Shown here: positions 855 through 63,655 of the stretch, piece after piece | Layout: each line of letters begins with the position of its first letter | How positions within the stretch are numbered: the first letter of the stretch is position 1 | Source of the DNA: a virus | Length of the DNA: 64,000 nt | Reading direction: 5' to 3' (one strand) | IMG/VR virus record: IMGVR_UViG_3300021171_000005 | Span: 1 to 64,000 of that record | Made by a program: the position numbers and the translations under genes | The notes under the pieces: generated by a model | What the model was told of the DNA's origin: nothing | The model's input: only the letters and a program-made list of their open reading frames with translations | Databases searched by the model: none

Positions 855-1055
855 CTACTTTCGTGTCCGCATCTGGACATATTCGGTCATCGACGCCTTA
901 TCAAAATGGCCGAAGCAATAGCCAATTTTGGTGGCCGGGCGCTTGCATCGAATCAAGCCAATTTTGGAATCTTCAACGTACTTGCAGCGGGATACTCCGC
1001 AGTTCTCGCATCGGTCTTCTAGTGCTTCCCAATCATGTACCCGGCATCGTTTCAT
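855..1055 (-). CDS. small Cys/His-rich hypothetical protein
   Basis: CxxHDW...CENC...CxxH; same strand as neighbours. Confidence 0.55.
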   Translation of the reverse strand: MKRCRVHDWEALEDRCENCGVSRCKYVEDSKIGLIRCKRPATKIGYCFGHFDKASMTEYVQMRTRK

Positions 1056-1089
1056 GGCATTAAATTATGTGTTAATCTCGCTCATTAAA

Positions 1090-1203
1090 CTAGTTCTCGA
1101 CGCGAGAACCGTGGCAGTCTACACCGAATATCTTGTGTGCTCGAACCTTACCATTGCGTTTCAGTTTGACCCACTTTCCGCAAACGGGGCATTTCCCGCG
1201 CAT
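1090..1203 (-). CDS. 37-aa Zn-finger micro-protein (MRGKCPVCGK...HK...CHGS)
   Basis: Manual translation; ATG overlaps the TGA of the upstream gene. Confidence 0.55.
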   Translation of the reverse strand: MRGKCPVCGKWVKLKRNGKVRAHKIFGVDCHGSRVEN

Positions 1204-1391
1204 CACTGCACCTCCTCGAAGTGCTCCAAGGCTTCAATCTTCTCGCGGATTTTGTACGGCAAGGAAGCAAAGTCACGATAGGAATATTCTTCAGCCACGG
1301 CGCGTTTGCATCCACACTCGATGAGGAAATCATCGCGGTCTTCGGTGCTGTAGCTTTTCCAAAGCATCGGTTCGTATATTCTCTTCTCCAT
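1203..1391 (-). CDS. hypothetical protein, first gene of the leftward early operon
   Basis: SD GGAG before ATG 1391; downstream of two leftward promoters. Confidence 0.6.
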   Translation of the reverse strand: MEKRIYEPMLWKSYSTEDRDDFLIECGCKRAVAEEYSYRDFASLPYKIREKIEALEHFEEVQ

Positions 1392-1472
1392 ATCCACTCC
1401 CAACGTACTTAAATCATCTATTGATTCGATTGCTCTTTACATGTCTTAATTACGTTCTTAATCATTGCAAGC

Positions 1473-1501
1473 AGTCTACCAAGTTGCGGGGCGTCTGTCA
1501 A
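1473..1501 (-). promoter_or_regulatory. sigma70-type promoter TTGACA-17-TAGACT with CGCCCCGCAA in the spacer
   Basis: Reverse complement reads TTGACA gacgccccgcaacttgg TAGACT. Confidence 0.8.
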
Positions 1502-1593
1502 CAATTATATTTCGTTTAATATCAATACGATACAAAGGACGATTATCCCGGCATTCTGTATAAATGATTGGATTCGTCATCTCATTGCCCTAG

Positions 1594-1622
1594 ATTGTCC
1601 ACATCTGGACAAGAATTGTCAA
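1594..1622 (-). promoter_or_regulatory. sigma70-type promoter TTGACA-17-GACAAT overlapped by the 16-bp palindrome
   Basis: Reverse complement reads TTGACA attcttgtccagatgtg GACAAT; palindrome at 1596-1611. Confidence 0.65.
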
Positions 1623-2043: not shown

Positions 2044-2243
2044 TGCATGACGGACTGTGCCCTAAATGCTATAAGGAAATGATGGATGGAGAAGTAGTAA
2101 TCACGGATTGGGCGGGCAATGCGACACAACATGTCACCTGTCCAGTTCCGGACAACACTTTCAGCGACACAGAAGAATTGTGCGCATTCGACCGCGCAAT
2201 TGAGTTTGAGGAAGCGCTAGAAATTTTGAAGGGACAAGGATAA
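2043..2243 (+). CDS. hypothetical early protein (CPKC)
   Basis: TAATG overlaps at both ends. Confidence 0.55.
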   Translation: MHDGLCPKCYKEMMDGEVVITDWAGNATQHVTCPVPDNTFSDTEELCAFDRAIEFEEALEILKGQG

Positions 2244-2431
2244 TGTCAGACAAATATCTACGACTGGCGTTGTCGGAATACTGGCAGGAAAACCCCGCAG
2301 ATGTGGGAATACCCTTTATCGGTTTGTCCACATCTGGACAGTATAGCGTCCGCGCCAAAGCTGTACTAATGCAGCTAGAGGAAGAAAGAGAATCCCTGCG
2401 ACAAGTAGTAGATTATCAACCAGTGAAATAG
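2243..2431 (+). CDS. hypothetical early protein
   Basis: Translationally coupled; contains the palindrome at 2325. Confidence 0.55.
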   Translation: MSDKYLRLALSEYWQENPADVGIPFIGLSTSGQYSVRAKAVLMQLEEERESLRQVVDYQPVK

Positions 2432-3890: not shown

Positions 3891-4201
3891 TGTACTCAGA
3901 CAATTGATGTATTAATTACACAGTTGTCCGGATGTGGACAAATGACAGATCAAACCCAACCCGCCCCGCAAATCAGCAAGTGCTTTGGCTCATTACCTAA
4001 GTGTGAGTGTAGGGAGATATACGAGGCGTTGGCAGCCGCGCCAGTGAGAGAATTGCTAGAGCGTATCGCTGATGAATACGGGCGCGAACCCCGCAAATAG
4101 AGAATGACAAATAGTGTCCACATGTGGACAAATAAGCGTATTATTAATGCGCGGCACCCCGCATATCTTGTAAGTTGTTGAAAACGCCCCGCATATTTAT
4201 A

Positions 4202-4230
4202 TTGACAAATGGCCGTATTAATGCAATACT
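4202..4230 (+). promoter_or_regulatory. sigma70-type promoter TTGACA-17-AATACT, probably giving a leaderless mRNA
   Basis: ATG 4238 lies 7 nt after the -10; several CCCCGCA motifs and a perfect palindrome (4115) lie just upstream. Confidence 0.65.
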
Positions 4231-4237
4231 CTAGGAC

Positions 4238-4660: not shown

Positions 4661-5037
4661 TGAAACCTTACACATTCCCCCACACTCCCGCGAATCAATG
4701 CCCAAGTTGCCGCGCAACGGACAATAACGCCTATGTAGACGCGAACGGCGTTAATATGCGGGCTTGTGGACGCTGTATGATCCAATGGCGCGACGTGTCC
4801 ACATCCGGACAACCCCCGCAATTCGCCCCGCAATCTGTAAAAGACACCTGGAATGAGGAAATGGTATTCAAGATGACAAGAGGAACATGGGCTGATCTAA
4901 TCGACGGTTTGCCTATTGGCCGTTGTTACGTCTTGGACGATGGATCAATCCGAGTAGAGCGCAAGCAAACCACACGCGAACTAGGCATAGAGCCAGATGT
5001 GACGTTCAAACACTGCCCGCCAGACGAGATGATCTAA
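4660..5037 (+). CDS. Zn-ribbon hypothetical protein
   Basis: TAATG coupling; CPSC...CGRC. Confidence 0.6.
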   Translation: MKPYTFPHTPANQCPSCRATDNNAYVDANGVNMRACGRCMIQWRDVSTSGQPPQFAPQSVKDTWNEEMVFKMTRGTWADLIDGLPIGRCYVLDDGSIRVERKQTTRELGIEPDVTFKHCPPDEMI

Positions 5038-9334: not shown

Positions 9335-10941
9335 TGAAGATTCTTGTTACAGGTTCCTCGGGGTTAATTGGCGGCGAGGTTGTAGAATATTTCGGCAATC
9401 AGGGACATACGATTGTTGGAATTGATAATAACATGCGGAGAGAGTTTTTCGGCGAGGCCGGAGATACTCTTTGGAATCTGCACAGAGTTGTGCACAGCGT
9501 TCCTAATTATAAGCACCACCAATCGGATATTCGGGATCGCCATACGATTGATTGGATTTTTAGAGACCTCGATGGCCCGTTTGATGTTGTAATTCATTGC
9601 GCGGCGCAGCCTTCACATGACAAGTCCCGCGAGATTCCTGTCACCGATTTTGATGTCAATGCGGTAGGAACTCTAAATCTTCTGGAAGCAACCCGGAAGT
9701 ACGCACCCCAAGCGGTATTCATTTTCATGAGTACCAATAAAGTTTACGGGGATGCGCCGAACGAAAAATTGTTGATAGAGCTGCCGAATAGATTCGATTT
9801 TGCCAAAGACGAAGATAAGCGCGGAATCGACGAAACATGCCGAATTGATCAGAGCACACATTCAATCTTCGGGGCCTCGAAAGTTGCTGCCGATATTTTG
9901 GTTCAAGAGTATGGACGATATTTCGGTCTTAAGACCGCAGTTCTTCGCGGCGGATGCCTGACTGGGCCGGGACATTCGGGAGTAGAGCTTCACGGGTTTC
10001 TTTCCTACCTAGTTAAGTGTGCCATTGAAAGCAAGACATATAAGATTTACGGTTATAAAGGAAAGCAAGTCCGGGACAATATCCATAGCTACGATGTTGT
10101 TCGCGCTATGGACGAGATAATCAAGAATCCGAAATGCGGAGCCGTCTACAACATGGGCGGGGGTCGAGAAAATAGTATTTCTATTCTTGAAGCCATCGAT
10201 AAAATAGAATCGCTGATTGGCAAGAAGATTAATTATGAGTACGTTGACACCCCGCGAGTTGGTGACCATGTTTGTTATATTAGCGATCTGGCTAAGTTTA
10301 AATCTGACTTTCCCCATTGGCAAATAACAAAAGGTATTGACCAGACTCTTTCGGAAATGATACACACGCTGTATTGGGGCAAATACAGCGACCACGAAGA
10401 TACTAAAGTATATCCAGATGCGGACAATGCCGTAATTTGGGATGTAGGAGGTTTCCGAGGTTCGTGGACGGCGAGCATATTGGAGCACTATAGTCCGTCC
10501 AAAGTATATATCTTTGAACCAATAAAAGAATTTTACGACGATTGCCAACGAAGATTCAAAACCGATCCACGAGTGCACATTATTAATGCCGGGCTTTCCA
10601 ACCGCAATGGTACCGCGTCTCTTAGCAAAGATACGATACATAGCAGCGAATTTAAATCTAGTACAGCAGTAGAAAATGTTCCTCTGCGAGATATTGCTGA
10701 ATTGTGCTTCGAAGAAGAAATAGCTGTTATAAGCATTAACGCGGAAGGCGCGGAATTTGAAATACTTCGCCGATTAATAGATACGGGAAATATTTCAAAA
10801 TTTAAAAACGTACAAGTTCAATTCCACAATTTTCATCCAAACGCCGAGAACCTCCGCAGCCAAATACGAGCTGATCTGGCAAAGACACACATCGAATCGT
10901 TTAATTATCCGTTCGTGTGGGAATCGTGGAAACGTAAATGA
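9334..10941 (+). CDS. NAD-dependent sugar epimerase (CDP-paratose/tyvelose 2-epimerase-like) fused to a C-terminal FkbM methyltransferase
   Basis: TGSSGLIG, AAQPSHD, STNKVYG, GASK, QVRDNIH; C-terminal DVGGFRG...FEP...INAEGAE...QVQFH. Confidence 0.9.
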   Translation: MKILVTGSSGLIGGEVVEYFGNQGHTIVGIDNNMRREFFGEAGDTLWNLHRVVHSVPNYKHHQSDIRDRHTIDWIFRDLDGPFDVVIHCAAQPSHDKSREIPVTDFDVNAVGTLNLLEATRKYAPQAVFIFMSTNKVYGDAPNEKLLIELPNRFDFAKDEDKRGIDETCRIDQSTHSIFGASKVAADILVQEYGRYFGLKTAVLRGGCLTGPGHSGVELHGFLSYLVKCAIESKTYKIYGYKGKQVRDNIHSYDVVRAMDEIIKNPKCGAVYNMGGGRENSISILEAIDKIESLIGKKINYEYVDTPRVGDHVCYISDLAKFKSDFPHWQITKGIDQTLSEMIHTLYWGKYSDHEDTKVYPDADNAVIWDVGGFRGSWTASILEHYSPSKVYIFEPIKEFYDDCQRRFKTDPRVHIINAGLSNRNGTASLSKDTIHSSEFKSSTAVENVPLRDIAELCFEEEIAVISINAEGAEFEILRRLIDTGNISKFKNVQVQFHNFHPNAENLRSQIRADLAKTHIESFNYPFVWESWKRK

Positions 10942-13016: not shown

Positions 13017-13403
13017 ATGACTCTAGAAGAGAAACAGCTCGAATTACTTGAAAAGAACAAGCAAAGACGAGCAAAGCAGAACAGAAAGAACGCATCGGGG
13101 CCGCGCAAGAAAGAAGAACGCGGCCCTCGTATGCGCCTCCGGATTCTCTCATTAGAGCAGGTATTGCTCAATAAATTGTTGTACGTTGAAGACCCCCGGC
13201 AAATCGGATACATCGCTCACATCATTGATTGTGAACGTCGCAAACAACCGATTCCCAGCTTTCAAGAATTCTATTATCGACTTGGTGTGCAAGATGAATC
13301 CGAATCCCAAACGTCAGAGCAATTCCAGATTCGAGAAACACACTCCGAATACTTGTCCAGTTCCGGACAAACCAACCGGGAAACAGTATCCGTGGACGGA
13401 TGA
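13017..13403 (+). CDS. basic hypothetical protein
   Basis: Basic N-terminal region; contains the palindrome at 13354. Confidence 0.55.
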   Translation: MTLEEKQLELLEKNKQRRAKQNRKNASGPRKKEERGPRMRLRILSLEQVLLNKLLYVEDPRQIGYIAHIIDCERRKQPIPSFQEFYYRLGVQDESESQTSEQFQIRETHSEYLSSSGQTNRETVSVDG

Positions 13404-19655: not shown

Positions 19656-19681
19656 TTGTCCACATCTGGACAGGAGATTTT

Positions 19682-24371: not shown

Positions 24372-24778
24372 TCATCCGACGCTACCAAGACACAGATTTT
24401 GAAGACGCAGATTATCTTCAAAAGGATTTCTATCTTGTCCCCGCATCTCAAGAAGAATTGCGCGACAAGTTAAACAGTCCTTCTTGGGTTGCGGAAGAAG
24501 ACGGTGTTCTGGGCTGCATCATTACTTGTCCAGATGCGGACAAAACATTGATTTGGAGCGTAATCGTCGCTCCCAGCTATCGTGGTATGGGTGTCGGAAC
24601 CCTGCTGATGGGTGCGGCAGAATCGTTCTATCGCGGCAATAAATTGACATTGCACGTCGAACCCGCGAACCCCGCAAGACGATTGTATTTCCGAAGAGGA
24701 TACCGCGCCTCGCGATATATAAAAGACTTCTTCGGACAAGGTTACGACGCAATAGAGATGTACAAATATTGCGATTGA
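24368..24778 (+). CDS. GNAT (RimI-like) acetyltransferase
   Basis: VAPSYRGMGVGTLL, LHV...NPARRLY...G, DAIEM. Confidence 0.85.
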   Translation: MIIRRYQDTDFEDADYLQKDFYLVPASQEELRDKLNSPSWVAEEDGVLGCIITCPDADKTLIWSVIVAPSYRGMGVGTLLMGAAESFYRGNKLTLHVEPANPARRLYFRRGYRASRYIKDFFGQGYDAIEMYKYCD

Positions 24779-26970: not shown

Positions 26971-27062
26971 AAGCTCTCCCCTAGGGAGGTTGCGCGTCAC
27001 TCGTCTCTAAATTGCGGGGCGTCCGGAAACGGACAAATGAATCTGGCCAGAAAATGAGGAAT

Positions 27063-28359: not shown

Positions 28360-28629
28360 ATGGCGCGGCCTAAAGGATCAAAGAACAAGCCCCGTCCGGA
28401 AGTGGACAAACTGACCCGTCCATTTTCTGAAACAATAAACAATCGATTAACTCGTGACTCAGAATTTGCCCGAGAATACCTTTTAGAACTCGGATGGCGT
28501 GAAAGAAATATTTCCTCGCCGTGGCGTTGGTATCAGAAAAATCTTCCCGCAGCGCACTATACCTTAAAAGATGCGGTTAGTTTAGAGAATTCTCGTGGCC
28601 GAACTCATAGAGTTTTACGTTCCGCGTAG
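28360..28629 (+). CDS. small basic protein with an N-terminal RPKGSKNK (AT-hook-like) motif
   Basis: SD AAGGA; MARPKGSKNK. Confidence 0.6.
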   Translation: MARPKGSKNKPRPEVDKLTRPFSETINNRLTRDSEFAREYLLELGWRERNISSPWRWYQKNLPAAHYTLKDAVSLENSRGRTHRVLRSA

Positions 28630-31140: not shown

Positions 31141-31375
31141 TTGATGTTCCAAGGAACGATAAGAGGTTCGGATTAACTTCTTGTCCGGAACTGGACATCG
31201 CAGTCGGGTCGCTCCCGGCAAACCCCGCGTTCTGGGGGTTTACAGAACAAAGAATCGTCTTAGCGGATGATTCTGCGTGCTGGTGGATGACTGGCCGTCG
31301 GATATCAGCATCGGATTTCGGCTCTGTCCAAGCCGCGTCCGAGAAGCCTGATCAATCTTCTCGGACTCCGAGTTT
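31141..31375 (+). ncRNA. highly structured intergenic RNA candidate
   Basis: At least 8 contiguous hairpins, one with a CGGATT loop. Confidence 0.5.
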
Positions 31376-37696: not shown

Positions 37697-37698
37697 TC

Positions 37699-44526: not shown

Positions 44527-46713
44527 ATGGCAGATGATGATCAGGTAATAGAAGCACCAGAAGTAGACGAGTCTCCCGAACCGGATCAGTCCAGTTCTGG
44601 ACAACCTCCGGTCGCTGCCGCGCCGATGGCTCCGCCTGCCCAGCCGCAGGGTCCGCCCATTCAGGTCGTAGCCGCGCATCCAAAGGCGAATCTTTTTCAT
44701 AATCTCTTGAACGCTCTGGGGGGCGGGGATCAAACGCAATATTCCGTCGATCCACAAACTGGGGCGATGTCGGTTACCCGTGTTCCTCAAACTTCTGGCC
44801 AATTGGCTAAGGGAATCCTAGCCGGTGCCCTCACGGGAATGTTCGCGGGCGCGGGGGAGCGCGGTCCCGGAAGCGAAGGTCGATCCGCCGCCGCTGGATT
44901 CGCCGCCGCACAACAGCAACGCAATGCTGTTCAGGCACAGAACCAAGCAATGGCTAAGGAAGATTTTGAGCGCCAGCAACAGGCCAAAGTCCGCCAAGCG
45001 CAGATTATGAAGGCGAATTTCGACGCCATGAAATCTGCTTACGCTATCGGCAAGGAAAACGACGAACAGAAAGATAAAATCGTTTCCAATCATGCCGATG
45101 ATTTGGCTCAGTGGGCTAATACTGGAGCGGTTAAAGACAAAGACGTTCCGTCCGATCAATTGATGAAGAAAGGTTACGATCCGTCCAAATATATCGCAGT
45201 GCCGGATGGTAAAGTTGCTGTCTTCAAACCGGATGGCTCGCGGGCGACGGACGAAAATGGCGTTCCGCTTTCTCAACTGACGTACAGCGTTATCGACGGA
45301 ACTACGCAGGCCCCGCTTACGCAAGAAAAATATGACAAGATGGTGAAATACGGCCTTCAGAAGCAGGGATCGTCTACACAAATTCCTGAAGGTGCAACCG
45401 TTTCTTCCGCAGTTCTGGCCCAAATGAATCATCGTATGGACCTCGTTGATCAGACGCAGAATGAGATTGATAAGGCCATTGGACCGGGCAAAGTTAATGT
45501 AGTGGACAAGATCAAAGAGAATCCGGGATTATTGCCCGCCATTGAAGCCTACCACAACGATGGTTCCTCTACAGAAATCGACAATCAGATTAATAACCTT
45601 CAGGCAAAGAATCCTCAAGCTGCGGGGCTTATGCGTAGTTTGGTGGGTAAAGACGAACTCGAAGGTCTCAAGGAAAAACGCGAGGATCGTATCGCTGCTG
45701 GAAAAGCCGCAGCTACGGAAACCGCACGAATCAACGCCGAAGAAGGCACTCCAACTGGAAAAGCAAAAGCTAAGAAAGAATCTCAGCAACTAACTAACGA
45801 ACAACTCGAAGGCCAAATTAAGCAACTAGATTTGGCTAAGAAAAAAGCCGAAGCCGCGCCCGCAAATACTCAACACGGCCCACTTGAGAACGGTATCGAT
45901 AATACGTATATAAATAGCTTACCTTCGGAAAAACAAAACGCAGTGCGTTTGATTGGCAAAGGAACCATTCCATATACTGCTCAAGCCCTGCGTACTTCGG
46001 TAGGTCAGAATTATTTAGAAATCCTCGCCAATGCTTTCCCCGGAGATGCTACTCATCCGGGATTCGATGCTTCTCGTTTTCCAATATACGAGAAAACTCG
46101 TATGGGATTTACTTCGGGCAAAGAAGCTCAAGGTACCCGAGCATTTAGCACAGCAATGGAACACTTGAAGGAGGCAAATGACAATATCAGTGCCCTTTCT
46201 ACCATTGGCGGATTAAAGGATTTAACTCAAATCGGAGCGTTCGGTTCTTCTGCTCGTCAACAAGCGAATCGTCTAAACGTGGCAAAAGATGCGGTCGGAG
46301 AAGAACTAGCAAAAGCGTATAAAGCGGGTGTAGCCGATAAAAATGAAGTTGAAGGTTGGAAAGATAAGTTGAATACCAATGTTCCTAGTAAATTGAAAGA
46401 TAATATTCAAGAAGTTGCCCGACTACTCAAAGGTCAATTCGATTCTTTGCAGTCTCAATGGGATAATGGCTCTCCTCCGGGGATGGTTTCTCCATTGAAT
46501 AATTTGATTTCGCCGCAAGCACAAAAAGCCTATAAAGGCATCATTGGGCAAGATATCGGATATGGCACGTCGGCAGGGAGCGCACAGAATCCGCCAGCAG
46601 CCCCGCAATCTCATACATTTAGTCTCAGCGCGTGGCAGAAAGCCAATCCTACCGGCGATGCGAATGCTGCTAAAGCCGCCGCGCAAGCTCAAGGATATCA
46701 GGTCACAAATTAA
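44527..46713 (+). CDS. large internal virion / ejection protein
   Basis: Helical, Q/A/K-rich; SD AGGA before ATG 44527. Confidence 0.7.
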   Translation: MADDDQVIEAPEVDESPEPDQSSSGQPPVAAAPMAPPAQPQGPPIQVVAAHPKANLFHNLLNALGGGDQTQYSVDPQTGAMSVTRVPQTSGQLAKGILAGALTGMFAGAGERGPGSEGRSAAAGFAAAQQQRNAVQAQNQAMAKEDFERQQQAKVRQAQIMKANFDAMKSAYAIGKENDEQKDKIVSNHADDLAQWANTGAVKDKDVPSDQLMKKGYDPSKYIAVPDGKVAVFKPDGSRATDENGVPLSQLTYSVIDGTTQAPLTQEKYDKMVKYGLQKQGSSTQIPEGATVSSAVLAQMNHRMDLVDQTQNEIDKAIGPGKVNVVDKIKENPGLLPAIEAYHNDGSSTEIDNQINNLQAKNPQAAGLMRSLVGKDELEGLKEKREDRIAAGKAAATETARINAEEGTPTGKAKAKKESQQLTNEQLEGQIKQLDLAKKKAEAAPANTQHGPLENGIDNTYINSLPSEKQNAVRLIGKGTIPYTAQALRTSVGQNYLEILANAFPGDATHPGFDASRFPIYEKTRMGFTSGKEAQGTRAFSTAMEHLKEANDNISALSTIGGLKDLTQIGAFGSSARQQANRLNVAKDAVGEELAKAYKAGVADKNEVEGWKDKLNTNVPSKLKDNIQEVARLLKGQFDSLQSQWDNGSPPGMVSPLNNLISPQAQKAYKGIIGQDIGYGTSAGSAQNPPAAPQSHTFSLSAWQKANPTGDANAAKAAAQAQGYQVTN

Positions 46714-48644
46714 TGGCTACTCCGACACCACAGCCAATTGATATTTCGGCGGGTTTGGTTCCCAAACAAGATGCGGGGTCCGGTATAGATTTATCTGCCG
46801 GTCTTGATCAGTCCACATCCGGACAACCCGCCGCCCCGCAAGCACCATTCTTAGAACGAATGGGGCAGGGAATTGCTTCTGGTGCTGCTGAAACAGTTGC
46901 GGGGCTGGGCAAGATCGGCAGCCACATTCCCGGTACAAGTTACGTTTCCGAGAAATTAGGTGATGCTCTCGGTCTTCCTAAACTAGGACCCGATCAGAAT
47001 CCCTATGACACCGTAGAGAAATCCGTCCAGCACAATAAAGAGCAAGCCACTAATAATACTGCGGGGCGGATTGGATACGGAGGGGAAACGCTGACTGAAT
47101 TTCTCTTGGGCGACGAGGCTCTAAAAGGTTTGTCGTTGGCGGATAAACTTAAGGCCGCCTCTGGCGTTGCTCAAATGTTTGAGAAATCCCCGAAATTGAT
47201 GAAAGCTGTTCAGATTGGCGCGGATGCCATGAAGAACTATCCAAAGGCTACTGAAATTGTCGGCGAGGCTATGCGGCAAGGAGCGGTACAAGGAACGCAG
47301 ACTCTTGCCAAGACTGGCGGGGATGTTGACGAGGCCGCCAAAGAAGGCGCAACGATGGCCGGGACTTCCGGTGTTCTTGGCGCAGTCGGGGCAGGTGCCG
47401 GAAGCCTTCTTGAAAAAGGCGGCAAAGCCGCACAAACCGTAGAAACACTCGGCAAGGTTGCCGAAGCTGCACCATCCAAGGAAGAAGTAACCGAAGGTGC
47501 TAAAAACGCCGTAGATGCCGCCAAGCAATCCATGCACACGAAGTTCGAGGCGGGCATTCAAGATTTGACCGAACGTTTGGGCGATAAAGAAGTTCCTCAT
47601 GCGGACAGTCCTATCGCCGCTACTGCAAAAGAATTGATTAAGGCTCCCGAACCAGCCGAGCACGGGTTGGTGGCTGCTGCGAAAGAAGCCGCTGGCGAAA
47701 GAATGGACAAACCAGTGAAGGCTTTGCTTGATAAGGCCGCTGCGCAAGAAGGGCAGGCGTGGAAAGTAAATGATTTAGTTGATTTCCGGCAAGCCGTTAG
47801 AAAATTGGCGGATTCTTACCCGCCCGGCGACCCTAATGCCCGAACGCTTTATAAATTGCTACCTTCCGTGGACGATACTTTGGGAAAGTTGGCAGATCAA
47901 TCTGGGGATACTGCTGCTAAATCCGATTACGCGGCACTTCGAAAAGACTACAAAAACAAAATCAAATATTTCACTCCGTCTGGAAAACCAGAGGATCGCA
48001 TTGCTTATGCGACAGCCAATGTTTTACGCACAGGGACCAAAGAAGACATTGGCAAGTATCTCATGAGTGGTGATGCCCGAGCCAAGGTTAAAGCCTTGAC
48101 TGGACTGTTGGGCGATGACGGGGCTAAAGATATTGGTAAAAATGTTTTCAGTACGATGCTAGAAGATGCTTCTCCAAATGGAAGATTGAATCCGACAGCT
48201 CTTGTCCAGAAGTGGGCAAAGTTACCAAATGAAGCCAAGAACAGTCTCTTTGATTCTAAGATTGGCGACACCGCTATCCAACAGCTAATGCAGGATACCA
48301 AAAGCGCCGCTCAAGTTCAGAGATTGATGCGTTTAGGTGTGTTGTCTGCCATCTCTGGACCCATCGCTCATCCTATAGGCGCAGGAGTTGGAACTTTATT
48401 AGGATTGACAATCGAAGGCGGAGGATTTGAGGGCGGACGGAAAATGCTAGATTACGTTGCCAATCACCCCGCAGTTTGGAAAAGTCTTGGATTGGCGGGA
48501 AAAGTTGCAAAAGCCGCCGAGTCCGGAACTGGACAAGCTCTCGGCACCGTAATCAAACAGCAGGCCGGACGCGGACTTAGCAGTGTAATGCAAGGGGCCT
48601 CGCAACCTTTGAGCGAACCCGCACCAATAGGAGAAGAACAATGA
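46713..48644 (+). CDS. large internal virion / ejection protein
   Basis: Ala/Gly/Lys-rich with hydrophobic glycine zippers; N-terminal IDxSAGL repeat. Confidence 0.7.
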   Translation: MATPTPQPIDISAGLVPKQDAGSGIDLSAGLDQSTSGQPAAPQAPFLERMGQGIASGAAETVAGLGKIGSHIPGTSYVSEKLGDALGLPKLGPDQNPYDTVEKSVQHNKEQATNNTAGRIGYGGETLTEFLLGDEALKGLSLADKLKAASGVAQMFEKSPKLMKAVQIGADAMKNYPKATEIVGEAMRQGAVQGTQTLAKTGGDVDEAAKEGATMAGTSGVLGAVGAGAGSLLEKGGKAAQTVETLGKVAEAAPSKEEVTEGAKNAVDAAKQSMHTKFEAGIQDLTERLGDKEVPHADSPIAATAKELIKAPEPAEHGLVAAAKEAAGERMDKPVKALLDKAAAQEGQAWKVNDLVDFRQAVRKLADSYPPGDPNARTLYKLLPSVDDTLGKLADQSGDTAAKSDYAALRKDYKNKIKYFTPSGKPEDRIAYATANVLRTGTKEDIGKYLMSGDARAKVKALTGLLGDDGAKDIGKNVFSTMLEDASPNGRLNPTALVQKWAKLPNEAKNSLFDSKIGDTAIQQLMQDTKSAAQVQRLMRLGVLSAISGPIAHPIGAGVGTLLGLTIEGGGFEGGRKMLDYVANHPAVWKSLGLAGKVAKAAESGTGQALGTVIKQQAGRGLSSVMQGASQPLSEPAPIGEEQ

Positions 48645-50151: not shown

Positions 50152-50876
50152 GTATCGCCCTAGTACAATCTACGCTCGGCGGCCATACCACATCCTCAAG
50201 TAACGGCAGCATATCTTGTACTGGAAATTTTTCTTCAAATACAACAAGCGGCAATTTTCTTATGGCCGCGTGCTGGTTCACTAGCAGTAATGCAACTCAA
50301 CCGGGACCACCCACTTTATCCACATCTGGACAAGGTGCGGGATTTTGGACACAGCTCGGCGGCTCCGCAGGCGCGGATGGCGGCACTCTTTGGAAGGGAA
50401 AAACGCTTATTGGAATAGTTCCTAATGCCCCTGCCATCTCTTCTGGAACCGCGACAACTTTTAGCTATGCTTCCGGCGGCAATGGTGGAACTAAAACAGT
50501 AGAATTTGCATTATTTGAATTCTCCGGAGTGTCTCAAACTGCGGGGGCAGGCGGTGTGGATAATAGCGGTAACACGTCCGGGGCGGCGAGTACTCCCAAT
50601 CCCGGCAATCTTACCACTACAGCTTCAGATTTATTAGTGGCTATTTATGCTGGGGAAACTGGTTTGATCTCTGCGGGGTCGGGATACGCTCTAGGACCAA
50701 ATCCCGTCGCAGTTCAGTTCGGACAAGTGCAGTATGCTTTAAACGTAACCGCAGGAACAATAGCTACTGCTTTCTCTGGAGGAACCGAAACGCAGTGGGG
50801 CGCGGCAGCTATTGCGTTTTTACCCAGCGTACCGAGCAGTAGTGGCAATAATTCATATGGATTCTATTTCGGATAA
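50148..50876 (+). CDS. Gly/Ser/Thr-rich virion protein
   Basis: I.LVQ...T.GN...EFSGV pattern. Confidence 0.7.
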   Translation: MSIALVQSTLGGHTTSSSNGSISCTGNFSSNTTSGNFLMAACWFTSSNATQPGPPTLSTSGQGAGFWTQLGGSAGADGGTLWKGKTLIGIVPNAPAISSGTATTFSYASGGNGGTKTVEFALFEFSGVSQTAGAGGVDNSGNTSGAASTPNPGNLTTTASDLLVAIYAGETGLISAGSGYALGPNPVAVQFGQVQYALNVTAGTIATAFSGGTETQWGAAAIAFLPSVPSSSGNNSYGFYFG

Positions 50877-52407: not shown

Positions 52408-52426
52408 TTGTCCACATCTGGACAAA

Positions 52427-54364: not shown

Positions 54365-55684
54365 ATGGCAACCCCAAAACCATTCACAAAGCAATCGATA
54401 GTAACAACTTCTGACCAAGATGCCCTTCAAATTAAGGACATTAAAGGAGATGTTGTTGGCTGGATTGATTCGTCCGGAACTGGACAGGGTAATTTGGCGA
54501 GTGGAGGCGGCGGTGGAACTCCCAGTGGATCAAATACTCAAATACAATTCAACGATTCGGGTTCGTTCGGCGGCAATGCAAATTTTGCTTTCAACAAAAG
54601 TGTGAACACAGTTGGAGGCGTAGGAATTGGGCCGGGTAATACTCCGGGTCAAATTGATCCTATTTCTGGCGAAACTTCAGGCCCGACCGGTACATCAATC
54701 CTCGATGTTACTCAAAGTATATCATCGTCTTCGTTGCCCAATAATACAAGTGCAACATTAGTTAGTGGCATCGAGGCAAATCCATCGGCTGATAGTAGTA
54801 ATACATATTTCGCCTTATGGAACATCGCCTCTTCGAAATCCACTAATACTCACGCAATTAGTCAAATTGTCGCGCAGCTAGTTGAAGCTGATCATCTTGG
54901 TAGTGGGGCTGTTACAAATATTATTGGCGTAACTGGAGGCGCGTTCAACGACAGTTCAGGTAGCGTCGCCTCTATAGCGGGATTACTTTATTCAGCCCAA
55001 AATACGGGTAGCGGCCCTGCCACAAGCGTAACAGGAATATTAATTGAGAGTACCGGAGCGGCGGGTTCCGGAACTGTTACAAATAATTATGGAATTCGTG
55101 TTGCCAGTCCCTCAACCGCTGCGGTAGTTTCTCACAACTACGGTCTTCGGATAGAAGATCAAACAGGCGGAGGGGGCAATAACCCAGATACTTGGGCAAT
55201 TTTCGTCGCTGCAGCAGCGGATAAGAGTCAACTTGGCATCGTTCAGATGCAGGGTGCTCTTACCAAATATAATAATATTTCAACAGTTGCAAACGGCATT
55301 CCATCCATATACGGACAAGCGAATCTTACTGCGCAAGGGGCGAATGTAGCGGCAACGACATTATACGCGGTCCCCGCTTCCGGAACCGGTATTTACGAAA
55401 TAACTGTTTATATTGTTGTATCGCAGCCGGGAACAAATTCATCCACTTTGCCGGATTCTCGCCTTATCTATACTGATCAAGATTCCTCGGCCACAATTAC
55501 AGTAAATGCGACGGCGTCAAGTACAGGCAATACCACATCAACCTTCCAACAGTTTACATTTGTGGTAAATGCAAAAGCCTCAACTAATATTCAATACGAC
55601 ATTGGCCAAGTTACCCCCTACGCCACATCCGGAGCAACCTCAATGCAATTTGCGTATAGAGCACGAGCGAAATATCTAGGCTAA
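54365..55684 (+). CDS. tail fibre/spike with the C-terminal VDLTAQ-type domain
   Basis: GSNTQIQFNDSGSFGG, NYG repeats. Confidence 0.7.
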   Translation: MATPKPFTKQSIVTTSDQDALQIKDIKGDVVGWIDSSGTGQGNLASGGGGGTPSGSNTQIQFNDSGSFGGNANFAFNKSVNTVGGVGIGPGNTPGQIDPISGETSGPTGTSILDVTQSISSSSLPNNTSATLVSGIEANPSADSSNTYFALWNIASSKSTNTHAISQIVAQLVEADHLGSGAVTNIIGVTGGAFNDSSGSVASIAGLLYSAQNTGSGPATSVTGILIESTGAAGSGTVTNNYGIRVASPSTAAVVSHNYGLRIEDQTGGGGNNPDTWAIFVAAAADKSQLGIVQMQGALTKYNNISTVANGIPSIYGQANLTAQGANVAATTLYAVPASGTGIYEITVYIVVSQPGTNSSTLPDSRLIYTDQDSSATITVNATASSTGNTTSTFQQFTFVVNAKASTNIQYDIGQVTPYATSGATSMQFAYRARAKYLG

Positions 55685-59653: not shown

Positions 59654-60000
59654 TAGAATTTCTTCCCTCCGGGCTGCATCCGCGCTTCATGCGTGTGATC
59701 AGCCCTTTTCATGTTATATGACATTTTCTCTTCGAAAGCTCCATCGAGGTCGTACCCGTATGCCCCGCAATAATCAAATATCCGGATCAGGACATCCGCT
59801 AATTCAACTTCAGCCATGCGGCGATGCGGGAGTTTATCGTCCGGCAAGTCCTTGCGCTCGCCTTCCAGAGCTTCCGACAGCTCGGAATGCATAAGAGCAA
59901 TCATTTCTCCCTTGTTACGGGAGATTGTATGCCCGGTTGCGGGGTCTTGCCACCATTTCTTGTTGGCTTCGTGACATCGTTTACTCAAGTCATTAAGCAC
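59653..60000 (-). CDS. MazG-like NTP pyrophosphohydrolase
   Basis: ALMHSELSEALEG.RK, EVELAD..IRI.D, KM.YN..R. Confidence 0.85.
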   Translation of the reverse strand: MLNDLSKRCHEANKKWWQDPATGHTISRNKGEMIALMHSELSEALEGERKDLPDDKLPHRRMAEVELADVLIRIFDYCGAYGYDLDGAFEEKMSYNMKRADHTHEARMQPGGKKF

Positions 60001-60732: not shown

Positions 60733-60740
60733 GTCATCTC

Positions 60741-61223
60741 CTAATTGATAAAGGCAGCACTTCGTTTCGGTGACCCAAAATGATGGGCTATGAATTCAAC
60801 GGCTTCTTCCGTGGTATTGAGATAATGGGATACTGCTTCTTTTACAAAAGGATGGTTGAGCATCAATTTATTTGCGGGGTGGACGACCGCGATAATCGGC
60901 TTCTTCATCTCCCACGCCCATGCCAGCTCGCAGATTGTTCCTAGCAATGGGCGGGGCGAGCCGAAGCTCTCCAAATGCATCAGAATGACGTCGGACGCCA
61001 CGACATCGTGGTAGTCTCGCAGGATGATGTCCTTCGACGTGAGATTAGGATCGGTAATGCCGCCGTCCGGAGATTCGAGGGCAAGATTCTCTTTGCCCCG
61101 CATTGGAGAAAGAACATCAAACTCATGAGCCTCCAGAATGGGAGTTACTTCAATTCTCCACAATAAAGATTCGGGATAATCAGTAGAAATCAATCCTGCC
61201 AAATATATAGTCTTGCGTTTCAT
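60741..61223 (-). CDS. nucleoside 2-deoxyribosyltransferase-like protein
   Basis: IYLAG, RD..DV..SD, GT..E..WA. Confidence 0.85.
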   Translation of the reverse strand: MKRKTIYLAGLISTDYPESLLWRIEVTPILEAHEFDVLSPMRGKENLALESPDGGITDPNLTSKDIILRDYHDVVASDVILMHLESFGSPRPLLGTICELAWAWEMKKPIIAVVHPANKLMLNHPFVKEAVSHYLNTTEEAVEFIAHHFGSPKRSAAFIN

Positions 61224-62170
61224 ACCAGTTCCTTTTCAATCTCCTCTAGAATTGCGGGGTTCTCGTCCAAGAACGCTACAGCATTAAATCTTCCTTGCCA
61301 GCGATTTTCCCCGTAAGTCATCCACGCCCCGCTCTTGCTCACAACCCCCGCAGTAACCGCCATATCAAAAATATCTCCAGAGCGGGAGAATCCTCGGTCG
61401 TAGAGCAGATCGAATTCTGCAACTTTGCTAGGGGCCGAAACTTTATTTTTCTGGATTTTAACTTTTGTTCTTGCTCCAATTACTTCTTCGCCGTTCTTGA
61501 TTGCTCCCGCTTTTGAGACTTCCAGACGCATACCCGCGTAGAAGCGTAAGGCTTTTCCTCCCGTGGTTGTGGCCGGGTTTCCGTACATAACACCGATGCG
61601 GTCGCGCATCTGGTTAATCATGATGAAAACGCAATTGGACTTGTGAACAAGTGCAGTCAATTTGCGCATAGCCTGAGACATCATGCGGGCTTGCAGACCC
61701 ATCTGAGCATCACCAAACTCGCCTTCAAGCTCGGCGCGAGGAACCAGTGCTGCTACGGAGTCCACAACAACAACCGCAATATCTCCGGACTCGACCAAAG
61801 CCTTAGCAATTTCTAGAGCCTCTTCCCCGCAGCTTGGCTGGCTGATGAGAAGATCGTCTACGTTTACGCCCAATTTGGCGGCATGGTCCCGATCAATTGC
61901 ATGCTCTGCGTCCACAATTGCACAGAGTTCACCACCCCGTTGGGCTTGCCCGATTACTGACATGGAAATGGAAGTCTTACCGACCGCCTCTTGGCCAAAA
62001 ATCTCGATCACGCGACCGCGAGGAAATCCACCTACCCCGGTAGCCGAATCGAGGCTTGGTATGCCCGTAGAAATGACTTGAACCGGAACGTGCTCGGTAT
62101 CTCCCATACGAATAAGTGCTCCAGCTCCAAATTGTTTGTTAATTCGAGCTGTCGTTTCTTTGATAGTCAT
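61220..62170 (-). CDS. recA: RecA recombinase
   Basis: Walker A GQEAVGKT, DAEHA, VDSVAAL, QARMMSQAMRK, INQ.R, TTGG.AL.FY, KNKV; start ATG 62170 (SD GAGG). Confidence 0.97.
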   Translation of the reverse strand: MTIKETTARINKQFGAGALIRMGDTEHVPVQVISTGIPSLDSATGVGGFPRGRVIEIFGQEAVGKTSISMSVIGQAQRGGELCAIVDAEHAIDRDHAAKLGVNVDDLLISQPSCGEEALEIAKALVESGDIAVVVVDSVAALVPRAELEGEFGDAQMGLQARMMSQAMRKLTALVHKSNCVFIMINQMRDRIGVMYGNPATTTGGKALRFYAGMRLEVSKAGAIKNGEEVIGARTKVKIQKNKVSAPSKVAEFDLLYDRGFSRSGDIFDMAVTAGVVSKSGAWMTYGENRWQGRFNAVAFLDENPAILEEIEKELV

Positions 62171-62178
62171 AATCCTCG

Positions 62179-62934
62179 CTAGCAATTCGTCGTGCGAGCG
62201 CCATCCTCGCACTTCACAGCCCGACCCCAACCTCCGCAATCAAGACATTGAAAGCGACGGTATCGACGAGACTGCGTAATCGTGAATCCACGGTATTGAA
62301 TGTTCTTTGAATTACATTTCGGGCAAAATGCGCGGTTGACTACAGTGAAATTAGGATGATTGCTGATCCAAGGACGCAGCCGGAGATATAGCTTTTCCAG
62401 CAACAGAATATCTTTCTTGTTGTACTTCACCATTAACGCCCATGATTTAGGATCACCTTCAATGCACCCCTGCCACAAATCGAAGTCCGTCTTAATCTTT
62501 TTCTCATTCTCAAGTAGCGCGGACAAATCATCCAATTTATTGCTATTGAATCTTGCTACCTTCTTCGTCGCTTTCTTGGTATCGATGGTCTTAAACGGCT
62601 TCGGAGGTTTCAACCCGTGAAAGATAAATCGCGCTTGGAATACTTTTATATCGAATTGGTCTCCATTGTGCGCAACAATAATATCAGCTTCGTTGACTAA
62701 AGTCCACAGGTCTTTCACCAATTTCTCGTCATTGTACGATCCGGGGCGATAGCCTTTGAAATCCGGCAAAGCCTTTGCGAATACCTCTTTCTCATCTAGC
62801 CATTTGGCTGCGTAAGTTGCGAGGCAGGTCTCCTGTTTGAATCGAATGATATTCTGTTCATACTTGCCCCATGAATATCCAATGTTGGGGAATGTCTCCA
62901 GATCGAGAAAAAGTATTCTAGGTCGTTTTTGCAT
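62179..62934 (-). CDS. DEDD / RNase_H_2-like 3'-5' exonuclease with a C-terminal Zn ribbon
   Basis: LDLET, AHNGDQFD, IDT, YNKKD; CPKC...CLDC. Confidence 0.85.
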   Translation of the reverse strand: MQKRPRILFLDLETFPNIGYSWGKYEQNIIRFKQETCLATYAAKWLDEKEVFAKALPDFKGYRPGSYNDEKLVKDLWTLVNEADIIVAHNGDQFDIKVFQARFIFHGLKPPKPFKTIDTKKATKKVARFNSNKLDDLSALLENEKKIKTDFDLWQGCIEGDPKSWALMVKYNKKDILLLEKLYLRLRPWISNHPNFTVVNRAFCPKCNSKNIQYRGFTITQSRRYRRFQCLDCGGWGRAVKCEDGARTTNC

Positions 62935-62944
62935 TGGGTCCTTT

Positions 62945-63655
62945 TTAGAATCTATGCCCGAGGGCGAAGCCGATACCAATTCCGATGCCAACCTGCTTTA
63001 ATGCTGTTTTAACTTTTCCAAAGAATGTTGGCTTCGCTACGGCCAATTCTGCTTTACATGCATCATTTGCTTTCTTGATTTGATCATTGAGTCCTTGAAT
63101 TTGCGCGGCCTGCGTTGTATTCACCGCCGCGCAACTCGTTAACTGCTTATTGAGATTATCCTCCACTGTATGCCCAGCCAATACCTCCTGATGCAGCGAG
63201 TCAACCAATTCTAAGTTCTGTACGGTCGTCACCCCGGCTTGTCCAGATACGGACAAATTCTCTCCGGCGGGTTGCACATCTTGGGGATTGGCCGAACTAA
63301 TCAGCGTCCGCCACCTAGCCGCCAGCTCCGCAATTGTAAGAGTTGAATCTACTTTCTGTTGTTGCGCGGTTTTGTCCTTCAGCGCCGCAATTTGCGTAGC
63401 AATTAACGCATTTTGCGTAGACATTTGCGCGGCAAGTTGGGTGTACGCTTGTTGCGAGGCGGCGACTTGCTGGGCGAGCTGCTGGTTCTTGGCTACCTGA
63501 TCATCTAACACTTGCTTCGCAACGGCAGCGGCAGCCACAGCTTCGTCGTGTCTGTGGTTCTCAAACTTATTCAACAAGAATAGAAATACACCGAGCCCCG
63601 CAAGAATCAGGAAAATCCTCTCGTGAGCTTTTATGAATGTAATCCAGCCAATCAT
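62945..63655 (-). CDS. TM plus long coiled-coil protein (spanin-like)
   Basis: N-terminal TM, coiled coil, C-terminal GIGIG hydrophobic tail. Confidence 0.55.
   Translation of the reverse strand: MIGWITFIKAHERIFLILAGLGVFLFLLNKFENHRHDEAVAAAAVAKQVLDDQVAKNQQLAQQVAASQQAYTQLAAQMSTQNALIATQIAALKDKTAQQQKVDSTLTIAELAARWRTLISSANPQDVQPAGENLSVSGQAGVTTVQNLELVDSLHQEVLAGHTVEDNLNKQLTSCAAVNTTQAAQIQGLNDQIKKANDACKAELAVAKPTFFGKVKTALKQVGIGIGIGFALGHRF

Follow-up and report, generated by a model that had tools for sequence, protein, structure and literature searches.

A dispersed palindrome in an uncultured soil phage lineage as a candidate operator network

Results

Occurrence and architecture of the palindrome

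The record analysed here is that of an uncultured soil phage, designated G000, with a length of 93,865 bp (~94 kb) and a GC content of 48%, whose first 64,000 nucleotides are referred to as the window. The phage carries an integrase gene, which makes a temperate life style possible. Dispersed over its genes and intergenic regions is a short palindrome with the arms TGTCC-N6-GGACA, which occurs in 15 exact copies in the window (Table 1) and in 21 exact and 18 one-mismatch copies in the whole record, together about 40. All 14 exact and nine one-mismatch coordinates listed in the initial annotation proved to be real sites, but the exact copy at 27392 and one-mismatch copies at 185, 38117, and 48203 had been overlooked there. 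The seven sites in the first 5 kb, the perfect palindrome at 4115, and the copies next to an SD (19657) and between convergent stops (52409) were likewise found as described, while the promoter said to be covered at its spacer and -10 by the copy at 1596 is a weak leftward promoter-like match.

Table 1. Palindromic sites of the window and genes discussed in the text (positions in G000 unless stated otherwise)
Feature	Position	Strand	Context
Exact site, TGTCCGCATCTGGACA	864..879		Intergenic, early divergent region
Exact site	1596..1611		Between divergent early promoters (leftward TSS ~1466; rightward -35 at 1667)
Exact site	2139..2154		Within small early gene g5, frame 0
Exact site	2325..2340		Frame 1 of early gene g6 (L-S-T-S-G-Q); promoter-like TSS 2471 follows ~137 bp downstream
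Exact site	3925..3940		Intergenic (3891-4237)
Exact site, perfect 16-bp palindrome	4115..4130		Promoter-like TSS 4237 follows ~114 bp downstream
Exact site	4796..4811		Linker of early zinc-ribbon protein g13; exact site at matching place of G005 orthologue (45030) by anchored comparison, flanks hardly align
One-mismatch site	10411..10426		Within g22; TATCC arm avoids Cys codon
Exact site	13354..13369		Within g27, 34 nt ahead of its stop
Exact site	19657..19672		Fills g37/g38 gap, adjoins SD of g38; spanned by RNA contig
Exact site	24527..24542		Within GNAT-like g43; position kept in G005 (68007) and L119 (1998)
One-mismatch site	27020..27035		27 nt upstream of g46; adjoins CCCCGCA word
Exact site	27392..27407		Within g46; atypical spacer ATGACC
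One-mismatch site (CGTCC)	28393..28408		Kept in G005 (70977), spacer altered
Exact site	31182..31197		Intergenic, downstream of g51
One-mismatch sites	185 and 38117
Exact site	42010..42025		109 nt ahead of stop of g64 (1238 aa); G005 83605 identical at 16/16; other relatives have same length, different residues
One-mismatch site	44588..44603		61 nt into g68, Q-S-S-S-G-Q
One-mismatch site	46810..46825		97 nt into g69
One-mismatch site	48203..48218		Within g69; orthologous G005 position (89202) also one mismatch
One-mismatch site	48520..48535		109 nt ahead of g69 stop; absent in G005
One-mismatch site	50317..50332		55 nt into g73; reads TTATCCACA
Exact site	52409..52424		Takes up the 19 bp that separate the converging stops of g75 and g76; G005 95688 identical at 16/16
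One-mismatch site	54471..54486		106 nt into g79
One-mismatch site	59779..59794		Within minus-strand gene g85
Exact site	63240..63255		Within g91; one-mismatch version at same place in G005 (7754)
g76, HNH_3 + AP2	52427-52921	-	HNH-AP2 endonuclease gene
g99	66837-67577	-	ParB-DNA-binding-domain-like (weak fold matches)
XRE-type HTH gene	80677-80925		Unique to G000
GerE-type HTH gene (G005)	37422-37751		Unique to G005; GerE/LuxR-type (36.3 bits), between two exact sites

The sites are symmetric and 16-18 bp long. In full they read TTGTCC-R-N-W-W-N-Y-GGACAA, with a distance of 11 bp between the centres of the half-sites, and their sense-strand consensus is TTGTCCAGATCTGGACAA. The spacers of G000 carry C/G at positions 7 and 10, and a hand tally of the R6/Y11 pairs in sense orientation gave 13 G-T and 12 A-C, a lack of strand preference that fits a symmetric reader of double-stranded DNA. 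Roughly two in three sites lie inside genes. They lie in different frames, as had been noted before, but that description was incomplete, as frame 1 (xTG TCC nnn nnn GGA CAx) predominates, comprising more than half of the genic sites in G000 and 24 of 37 in its ~70% identical relative G005. In sense orientation, the deviant base of the one-mismatch sites is the first or second of the 5' arm; this asymmetry is explained by the codons, since the deviant base replaces a Cys codon (TGT) in frame 0 and a Leu codon in frame 1. The intergenic sites are mostly exact.

Dinucleotide shuffles predict 0.03 exact sites per window and 5-mer frequencies 0.13 per genome. Under 300 codon-preserving shuffles of the whole genome, in which every protein and the codon usage were held constant, a mean of 1.03 exact (maximum 4) and 6.1 one-mismatch sites was obtained, compared to the 21 and 18 observed. 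The presence of the palindrome as a genome-wide element is therefore confirmed, on stronger evidence than first stated.

Conservation and lineage distribution

At least 10 sites are co-positioned in G000 and G005, with identities of 96% in the arms, 70% in the spacers, and 54% in the flanks. The sites at 68148, 71708, 73872, and 74687 are retained in the closer relatives L265-L267, and the one in g43 in L119. These six genomes constitute the only sub-lineage with the motif, as 24 other relatives contain 0-1 copies each. The orthologues in motif-free relatives show other residues at the site positions but are equally long, from which it follows that the genic sites arose by substitution and not by insertion; mobile palindromes of the REP or MITE type, which should leave insertions opposite empty sites, are rejected on the same grounds. 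Moreover, the peptide S-x-x-G-Q is in excess only where it is coded by TCC......GGACA. As already proposed in the initial annotation, selection acts on the DNA rather than on the protein, as shown by the codon-preserving shuffles, the positional conservation, and the origin by substitution alone.

Outside this lineage, the same arms and spacing were found in unrelated phage contigs with a GC content of 52-71%, namely five sites in G006, four in L112, three in L120, and two each in L140 and L025/L017.

Relation to promoters and gene boundaries

Of 36 sites, 28 are no more than 130 bp away from a gene boundary (17.6 expected, p=0.0006), and 11 are intergenic (5.7 expected). As judged from matches to a sigma-70-like consensus, by which all promoters were called, a palindrome is present within 200 bp of 14 of the 27 promoter-like sites in G000 (4.2 expected) and of 10 of the 24 in G005 (4.0 expected); under a control matched for intergenic and coding position, this link has p values of 0.02 and 0.09, respectively. 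The distance is not fixed, the site centres lying between -138 and +178 relative to the promoter-like start points. Seven sites are clustered in the early region of 5 kb. The sites of G000 are spaced somewhat more evenly than random (CV 0.71, p=0.02), while those of G005 are spaced randomly (CV 1.0).

Search for a binding protein

A screen that covered ~105 of the ~145 proteins and ORFs revealed no repressor common to G000 and G005, and the only recognizable HTH genes are the two listed in Table 1. A weak GerE match was seen in G006, while no GerE or Crp-type protein was detectable in G000. Pfam screens of the same set revealed neither ParA nor Noc, and ParB_N gave no match in G000 or G005 with a screen whose first filter missed a known AP2 gene. 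The search for ParB, KorB, or HTH genes suggested at the outset thus yielded the unshared HTH genes and g99 as a weak lead.

Discussion

A proposed dispersed operator network

We tentatively favour, as the leading single explanation although short of an even chance, that the sites form a dispersed operator network bound by one sequence-specific homodimeric DNA-binding protein, comparable to stoperators or KorB sites. The architecture fits the dimeric binder acting along the whole genome that was envisaged in the initial annotation. A homodimer would occupy the palindromes, which selection maintains across the genome of one sub-lineage, intragenic copies included, with codon choice and even amino acid changes bent to create sites within genes. 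The bound protein may control the divergent early promoters, and promoter-proximal and intragenic copies at distances of up to ~150-180 bp on either side of start points may silence transcription or act as roadblocks genome-wide, the mode of action of mycobacteriophage stoperators and of the KorB OB sites on IncP plasmids. Gene control is the most likely role of such a network: among the functions proposed at the start, transcriptional control is favoured by the proximity to promoters and gene boundaries, while nothing supports a control of packaging or ejection. The binder should be encoded either in both G000 and G005 or by the host; the weak phage candidate is the product of g99, as suggested by weak fold similarity, and the zinc-ribbon protein g13 may be considered with even more reserve.

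A host regulator as possible reader

An unlikely alternative, though the strongest of the competing ones, is that the sites are phage copies of a host operator, which would couple phage genes to a host signal or act as decoys for the regulator, e.g., an activator of envelope stress or efflux functions. This would account for the same arms and spacing in unrelated contigs without a credible shared binder, as HNH-AP2 endonucleases are the only protein family common to several of them, and for the recognizable HTH genes not being common to G000 and G005. MAG contigs of Acidobacteriota, 159 and 218 kb long, encode major-capsid homologues, making this phylum plausible as host, and the complete Acidobacteriota genomes G296, G184, and G124 contain 15-18 copies each of CTGTCCG-AWWT-CGGACAG, often arrayed in tandem next to genes for CreD, RDD, and MacB-type permeases. 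However, the scan of candidate hosts produced look-alikes in these three genomes only, with 397 of the 400 sampled Acidobacteriota genomes at chance level; the spacers in the three are A/T-rich and differ from those of the phage, and the GC content of the three, 60-63%, is far above that of G000. Sigma-54 promoters, searched as TGGCAC-N5-TTGCW with up to two mismatches at -24/-12, are not enriched in the window either (24 compared to 28.7 expected), and two of them lie downstream of a site.

Possible chromosome organization and a second repeated word

Somewhat less probable still is an organization of the phage chromosome by the g99 product as a protein with a ParB-type DNA-binding domain, be it to segregate a plasmid prophage, to compact the chromosome, or to mark it in a way akin to nucleoid occlusion. 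g99 is common to all motif-bearing relatives, and a DNA-binding domain of the ParB, Spo0J, or Noc type is suggested by three leads, each weak and not fully independent of the others: its ESM-Atlas neighbours are named DUF3102 and 'ParB HTH', P1 ParB-DNA and Noc are the top rows in Foldseek, and VIA-align gives Z 6.5 over 109 residues for Spo0J and Z 5.8 over 120 residues for a ParB DNA-binding domain with parS. In addition, identical sites at 2750, 3108, and 3640 surround a weakly g99-like gene of contig L112, and the slightly even spacing in G000 would agree with an organizing function. Yet these fold scores are inside the noise range for helical proteins, G001 carries a 31% identical g99 without any sites, the screened proteins include neither a ParB_N CTPase domain nor ParA, the spacing in G005 is random, and a link to promoters and gene boundaries is unexpected for pure organizers. 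The palindrome is also not parS itself, as it shares only the outer TGT/ACA with the consensus TGTTNCACGTGAAACA, and the parallel to parS and ParB drawn in the initial annotation does not extend to membership in that system.

The motif-bearing sub-lineage, which belongs to a large group of ~95-kb soil phages, also contains ~100 copies of the 8-mer CCCCGCAA. As hyper-abundant words, both the 8-mer and the palindrome are lacking in sister lineages and in the candidate host genomes that were sampled. It is conceivable, but improbable to a similar degree, that this sub-lineage gained both the palindrome (~40 copies) and the 8-mer together as a genome-wide self-marking or decoy system with a reader such as g99. 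If so, the system might silence or organize the phage chromosome or act as a sponge for a host envelope-stress regulator, and would be of a kind not described for phages beyond the mycobacteriophage stoperators.

Improbable readings: nuclease targets, hairpins, and DnaA boxes

It is improbable that the sites are cut or nicked by a phage enzyme such as g76, or that they are hot spots of recombination or module exchange. Of all protein families, that of g76 alone recurs in L120 and G006, which are unrelated contigs with the motif; the stop of g76 is followed by a conserved site after 2-5 nt in both G000 and G005, and RecA, ERF, PD-(D/E)XK nuclease, and endonuclease VII-like genes are present in the phage. 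However, HNH-AP2 is also found in the motif-free G001, no system is evident that would protect the phage from a nuclease with 40 targets in its own genome, as would be required, and the varying spacers would block site-specific strand exchange. Recombination joints are rejected, because the sites do not coincide with the ends of homology blocks between G000 and G005 (six within 100 bp compared to 4.7-5.3 expected).

A function as hairpin in RNA or single-stranded DNA, i.e., as terminator, processing site, or translational operator, is very improbable. The 24-nt stretches around exact sites do fold at about -7.5 kcal/mol, compared to -2.1 for random 24-mers, and two sites adjoin an SD (19657 in the window and 6498 in L120), but G-T is as frequent as A-C at positions 6/11 on the sense strand, favouring neither strand, and the polarity of the mismatches is attributable to codons, with mostly exact copies between genes. 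Intrinsic terminators are rejected, because the stem of 5-6 bp is not followed by a T-run (at least five T in the next 8 nt on only 1 of 42 strand-sides).

The least probable proposal, that the half-sites are DnaA boxes (TTWTNCACA, read by a monomer) which titrate or recruit host DnaA, derives from nine occurrences (0.7 expected) of TTGTCCACA, the actinobacterial DnaA-box consensus, and from the sequence of site 50317, but is rejected, because the invariant CACA of DnaA boxes falls on the variable R-S-W of the palindrome (positions 7-9 of the 9-mer), the half-site words TGTCCAGA and TGTCCGGA (18 each) outnumber TGTCCACA (12), isolated TGTCC is hardly enriched (223 compared to 183), and the sites always consist of abutting inverted pairs.

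Comparison with known systems

The operator network considered here resembles the stoperators of Cluster A mycobacteriophages (L5 gp71, Bxb1 gp69), which likewise comprise tens of dispersed copies of one operator, here 21 exact and 18 one-mismatch copies in 93.9 kb, and share the copies at gene boundaries, the lineage specificity, and the maintenance in or next to lytic genes. Stoperators, for which the repressor is known, are asymmetric sites of 13-14 bp that follow the direction of transcription; the phage site, in contrast, is a largely intragenic palindrome, whose apparent polarity stems from the avoidance of Cys and Leu codons. The KorB operator OB of IncP-1 plasmids is a palindrome present at a dozen or more places, at variable distances from promoters and also inside genes, as is the case here. 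However, its sequence, TTTAGCSGCTAAA, differs, and KorB, a member of the ParB family, has a ParB_N CTPase domain and works together with ParA/IncC and KorA, none of which was found among the phage proteins screened; g99 is a possible counterpart, as suggested by weak structural leads. The sites of parS, Noc, SlmA, and MatP are short palindromes dispersed over a replicon as well, many of them intragenic, and parS also has 16 bp starting with TGT and ending with ACA, but its core differs, and a link to promoters and gene boundaries is atypical for these sites. NifA/NtrC-type UAS (TGT-N10-ACA) are formally matched by the arms, and arrays of look-alikes precede membrane-protein genes in some Acidobacteriota, whereas the phage sites are mostly intragenic and not accompanied by -24/-12 enrichment. 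Finally, LuxR-type boxes and CRP-type sites (TGTGA-N6-TCACA) have the same 5-N6-5 geometry and TGT...ACA ends, and the consensus of the palindrome resembles the tra box of TraR, ATGTGCAGATCTGCACAT, at 14 of 18 positions.

Abundance of the palindrome and selection at the DNA level

The palindrome TGTCC-N6-GGACA is a real and robust feature of this phage. The window contains 15 exact copies, compared to 0.03 expected from dinucleotide shuffles, and the site coordinates of the initial annotation were all right, with one exact site (27392) having been overlooked. The whole phage genome (G000, an IMG/VR virus record of 93,865 bp with a GC content of 47.8%, rated 100% complete by CheckV), of which the window covers the initial 64 kb, carries 21 exact and 18 one-mismatch sites, the latter deviating in one arm base. 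Among all its 5-bp dyads with spacings of 0 to 12, TGTCC/GGACA is by far the most strongly over-represented. The enrichment also persists against codon-preserving shuffles, in which proteins and codon usage were fixed, synonymous codons permuted and intergenic DNA shuffled: these predict 1.03 exact sites (at most 4 in 300) and 6.1 one-mismatch sites. Flanking T and A residues lengthen the site to TTGTCC...GGACAA, and the spacer is symmetric as well (R6/Y11 and W8/W9, with S7/S10 in G000). The sites of G000 appear to be spaced at about 2 kb (CV 0.71, p = 0.02, post hoc), but a regular spacing was dropped because the spacing is random in G005, a relative of 96,206 bp with about 70% nucleotide identity. 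A search of the literature on TGTCC/GGACA inverted repeats found nothing relevant.

The proposal that the constraint lies on the DNA rather than on the protein is borne out by the shuffles, by same-place sites in relatives, by the origin of the sites through substitution and by a codon-specific excess of the peptide S..GQ. G005 contains 13 exact and 31 one-mismatch sites, and at least ten sites occupy the same place in both phages, with identities of 96% in the arms, 70% in the spacers and 54% in the 30-nt flanks, values which describe selected pairs and do not constitute a test. Four sites are retained in the metagenome contigs of close relatives (L265-L267), sometimes in exact form where G000 has one mismatch, and the site inside g43 is retained in another relative's contig (L119). 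In conserved proteins, such as g64, g69, g91 and g43, the versions of motif-free relatives are equal in length and differ in the residues at the site, so that the sites must have originated through substitutions within tolerant loops rather than through insertions. Among the genic sites, frame 1 (xTG TCC nnn nnn GGA CAx, coding for [L/M/V]-S-x-x-G-[Q/H]) is strongly favoured, accounting for 24 of 37 in G005 and for the majority in G000. The peptide S..GQ occurs 23 times in G000, compared to 6.9 expected, and this excess stems wholly from the 15 cases coded as TCC......GGACA, the remaining eight codings matching the expectation; G005 behaves in the same way. In one-mismatch sites the deviant base is nearly always at position 1 or 2 of the upstream arm in the sense orientation, where a perfect arm would code for Cys (frame 0) or Leu (frame 1), both of which are avoided by the variants CGT, TAT, xAG and xCG. 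This codon explanation is better than a directional element, which was considered because of the mismatch polarity and rejected; truly intergenic sites are mostly exact. An RNA-level role of the palindrome is unlikely, because the R6/Y11 pairs on the sense strand, counted by hand from the site list, comprise 13 G-T and 12 A-C pairs and thus favour neither strand.

Placement along the genome and a second abundant word

Intergenic sites are more frequent than expected (11 of 36 versus 5.7), and for 28 of 36 sites the nearest gene start or end is no more than 130 bp away (17.6 expected, p = 0.0006). Seven are found in the 5-kb early region, the one at 1596 being centred between divergent early promoters. 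A palindrome is present within 200 bp of 14 of the 27 promoter-like sites in G000 (4.2 expected) and of 10 of the 24 in G005 (4.0 expected), all of these being predicted from a simple sigma-70 consensus rule. Against a random control matched for intergenic and coding location, the association is retained in G000 (10 versus 5.0, p = 0.02) and appears as a trend in G005 (7 versus 4.0, p = 0.09). The site centres fall anywhere between about -138 and +178 from the predicted start points and thus keep no constant position relative to the promoters. Two phages unrelated to each other each have a palindrome that runs straight into the Shine-Dalgarno sequence of the following gene (see table).

A second word, CCCCGCA(A), reaches 101 copies in G000, against 11 expected, and 123 copies in G005, while the 14 copies in G001, a relative without the palindrome, are at chance level, as is its abundance in 150 Acidobacteriota genomes; neither a strand bias nor an extended context was seen. 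The palindromes are modestly associated with this word at distances of up to 60 bp, both in G000 (11 of 39, p = 0.007) and in G005 (13 of 44, p = 0.005).

Coordinates of features in the phage, its relatives and other genomes
Feature	Location	Strand	Remarks
Tandem repeats	window 1-30; G000 93760-93865		27-bp unit AGTGTTGGTCGCGGCGCTCTGGTAGCC
Plus-strand arm	G000 1.7-59.4 kb	+	small early genes, glycan operon, terminase, portal, capsid, tail genes
Minus-strand arm	G000 59.4 kb via record end to ~0.5 kb	-	RecA, primase-helicase, ERF, integrase, PolA and other genes
CCCCGCA(A), examples	window 1485, 1628, 3964, 4089, 4157, 4187, 4814, 4826, 27013, 46834
Gap within g19	window 7004-7165		160-bp stretch
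Palindrome with Shine-Dalgarno	L120:6498-6513		GGACAAGGGAGA
Palindrome with Shine-Dalgarno	window 19657-19672		GGACAGGAGA
g76	window 52427-52921	-	complete free-standing HNH_3-AP2 homing endonuclease gene
g87/g88, beside RecA gene	window 60352-61223	-	nucleotide-metabolism-like genes
Sites retained in L265-L267	G000 68148, 71708, 73872, 74687
XRE/HTH_3 gene	G000 80677-80925 (L006:5677-5925)	+	~550 bp from palindrome 80126
GerE/LuxR-type gene	G005 37422-37751		flanked by two exact sites
Capsid gene in pieces	L119:2669-4730		~750-bp gap between 2870 and 3619
Capsid gene in pieces	G001 near 32790
Sites around g99-like gene	L112 2750, 3108, 3640		fourth site at 4480
CTGTCCG-AWWT-CGGACAG arrays	L259:5155-5480; L263:3008-3591; L261:4174-4208		Acidobacteriota genomes

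The phage and its relatives

The 27-bp tandem repeats at the end of the G000 record run on at its beginning; the assembly is thus probably circularly permuted, with the break falling inside this array, close to the divergent early genes. Our own ORF-based call yields 143 genes, including those for RecA, a primase-helicase, a clamp-like protein, ERF, RNA ligase, a tyrosine integrase and PolA on the minus arm. The RecA gene is adjoined by genes for a dATP/dGTP diphosphohydrolase-like protein (g87) and a nucleoside 2-deoxyribosyltransferase-like protein (g88), the latter confined to the motif-bearing lineage; they may be a sign of unusual nucleotide metabolism or DNA modification. A stretch within g19 is skipped in DNA contigs from two soil runs as well as in an RNA-library contig, and represents a natural deletion variant with no evidence of splicing.

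The phage is contained in several soil metagenomes, and its first 6 kb gave no megablast match among GenBank phages. Its host phylum is plausibly Acidobacteriota, because MAG contigs from this phylum (159 and 218 kb) carry capsid homologues. The capsid protein also retrieved more than 220 relatives from IMG/VR, in some of which the major capsid gene matches in several separated pieces, which suggests the insertion of an intron or a homing endonuclease.

The palindrome is restricted to a sub-lineage with 92-97% identical capsids (G000, G005 and L119), to which L265-L267, reached via g99, also belong. It is absent from G001, whose terminase is 61% identical, and occurs in 0-1 copies in 23 further relatives. 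Some sister lineages harbor dispersed palindromes of their own, namely CGTAT-N3-ATACG in G015 and G016 (six and eight copies), CGTAC-N3-GTACG and CCGTA-N5-TACGG in G021 (seven each, with TTGACAAWTTGTCAA at six early intergenic sites) and TTCTA-N5-TAGAA in G019 (five copies). These (loci L239-L258) are weaker than TGTCC-N6-GGACA and mostly intragenic; none was seen in G001. Much of the family may therefore be characterised by a protein and a site that evolve rapidly as a pair.

Search for the binding protein

About 105 of the roughly 145 predicted proteins and ORFs were screened against Pfam or PHROGs, and no ParA, CI, Cro, RHH or Crp-type protein was found among them; most small proteins gave no result, nor did the ESM Atlas for the zinc-ribbon early protein g13. 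A dedicated search for a ParB_N domain in G000 and G005 gave no match, which carries little weight since the same type of search missed the AP2 domain of g76. The sole recognisable HTH protein of G000 is of the XRE/HTH_3 type (E = 4e-11), encoded in a cassette of two genes that lies in reverse orientation within the minus arm, and G005 has one GerE/LuxR-type HTH gene. As neither gene has a homologue in the other phage, neither encodes a shared binder. Phyletic profiling yielded 28 genes common to G000 and G005 and missing from five motif-free genomes, including those for g13, whose linker holds a conserved site, the clamp-like protein, an exonuclease and nucleotide-metabolism enzymes; no recognisable sequence-specific DNA-binding domain was found among the 28.

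The endonuclease gene g76 is a reverse-oriented insert in the late region with its own near-consensus promoter (TTGAAA-17-TATAAT), and G005 contains three similar genes. Its family is the only one also found in the unrelated motif-bearing phage contigs L120 and G006, and it is present in the motif-free G001 as well.

A candidate binder is g99, a protein of 246 aa encoded in the replication module and common to all motif-bearing relatives (an 85% identical copy, P0007, is found on a 98-kb contig). Its model has a helical core (pLDDT 85-92 for residues 40-150) whose matches are weak but recurrent: its ESM-Atlas neighbours carry the names DUF3102 and 'ParB HTH', and its top Foldseek rows are P1 ParB-DNA and Noc at E values of 0.5-4. 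Alignment by VIA-align gave Z scores of 6.5 for Spo0J over 109 residues and 5.8 for a ParB DNA-binding domain with parS over 120. On the unrelated contig L112 (4.7 kb), identical sites lie on both sides of a weakly g99-like gene. We regard g99 as a lead, not an assignment, because these scores fall in the noise range for helical proteins and G001, which has no sites, carries a g99 of 31% identity.

Discussion

The main rival to a phage-specific system is that a host-encoded protein reads the sites. It would agree with the recurrence of the exact motif in unrelated phage contigs of 52-71% GC, and with three complete Acidobacteriota genomes (G296, G184 and G124) containing 15-18 copies, the highest numbers among 400 sampled. 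Their sites share the arms of the phage motif, read CTGTCCG-AWWT-CGGACAG and form tandem arrays with steps of about 20 bp beside genes for CreD, RDD-family and MacB-type permease proteins. These arrays represent an uncharacterised host regulon; PadR operators were rejected for them, as no PadR match was found among the small neighbouring ORFs. However, the phage spacers are unlike those of the host arrays, sigma-54-type -24/-12 promoters are not enriched in the phage, and 397 of the 400 genomes show no more palindromes than chance predicts, apart from a few moderately raised counts. The latter value, together with the control-level abundance of GCCCCGCAA in 150 Acidobacteriota genomes, also speaks against a host-abundant word (both tallies include the unpublished genomes G060, G085 and G188, on which no individual claim depends). 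We do not take a host reader as the best reading.

The parS-like character initially considered does not hold, as the site sequence differs from parS. DnaA boxes are rejected because the palindrome varies at the positions that are invariant for DnaA and half-sites on their own show no enrichment, and recombination joints because the ends of homology blocks between G000 and G005 are not associated with sites; where soil contigs show loose ends or joints at palindromes, these come from cross-matching to other contigs bearing the same 16-mer. Intrinsic terminators lack the T-run, and mobile palindromes the insertion signature.

If the sites constitute an operator network, stoperator-like control of a whole genome would reach beyond the mycobacteriophages, into a family of abundant, almost unannotated soil phages probably infecting Acidobacteriota. 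The case clearly illustrates that a regulatory DNA word can override protein coding, as more than 15 unrelated proteins have S-x-x-G-Q imposed on them; this is of use for gauging how strongly binding sites are selected. With its defined sequence, the 16-mer, as the duplex TTGTCCACATCTGGACAA, offers an experimental handle on its binder by pull-down or DAP-seq. The different palindromes in sister lineages suggest a rapidly co-evolving protein-site pair, which could underlie immunity or exclusion groups.

From the analysis as a whole, the sites are best filed as a putative dispersed, selection-maintained operator network that would work like stoperators or the KorB-OB system. They belong to neither of these two groups, being symmetric and mostly intragenic, with no repressor or ParB found among the proteins screened. 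What sets them apart is a palindrome that invades coding sequence in a new family of soil phages and was apparently acquired along with another abundant word.
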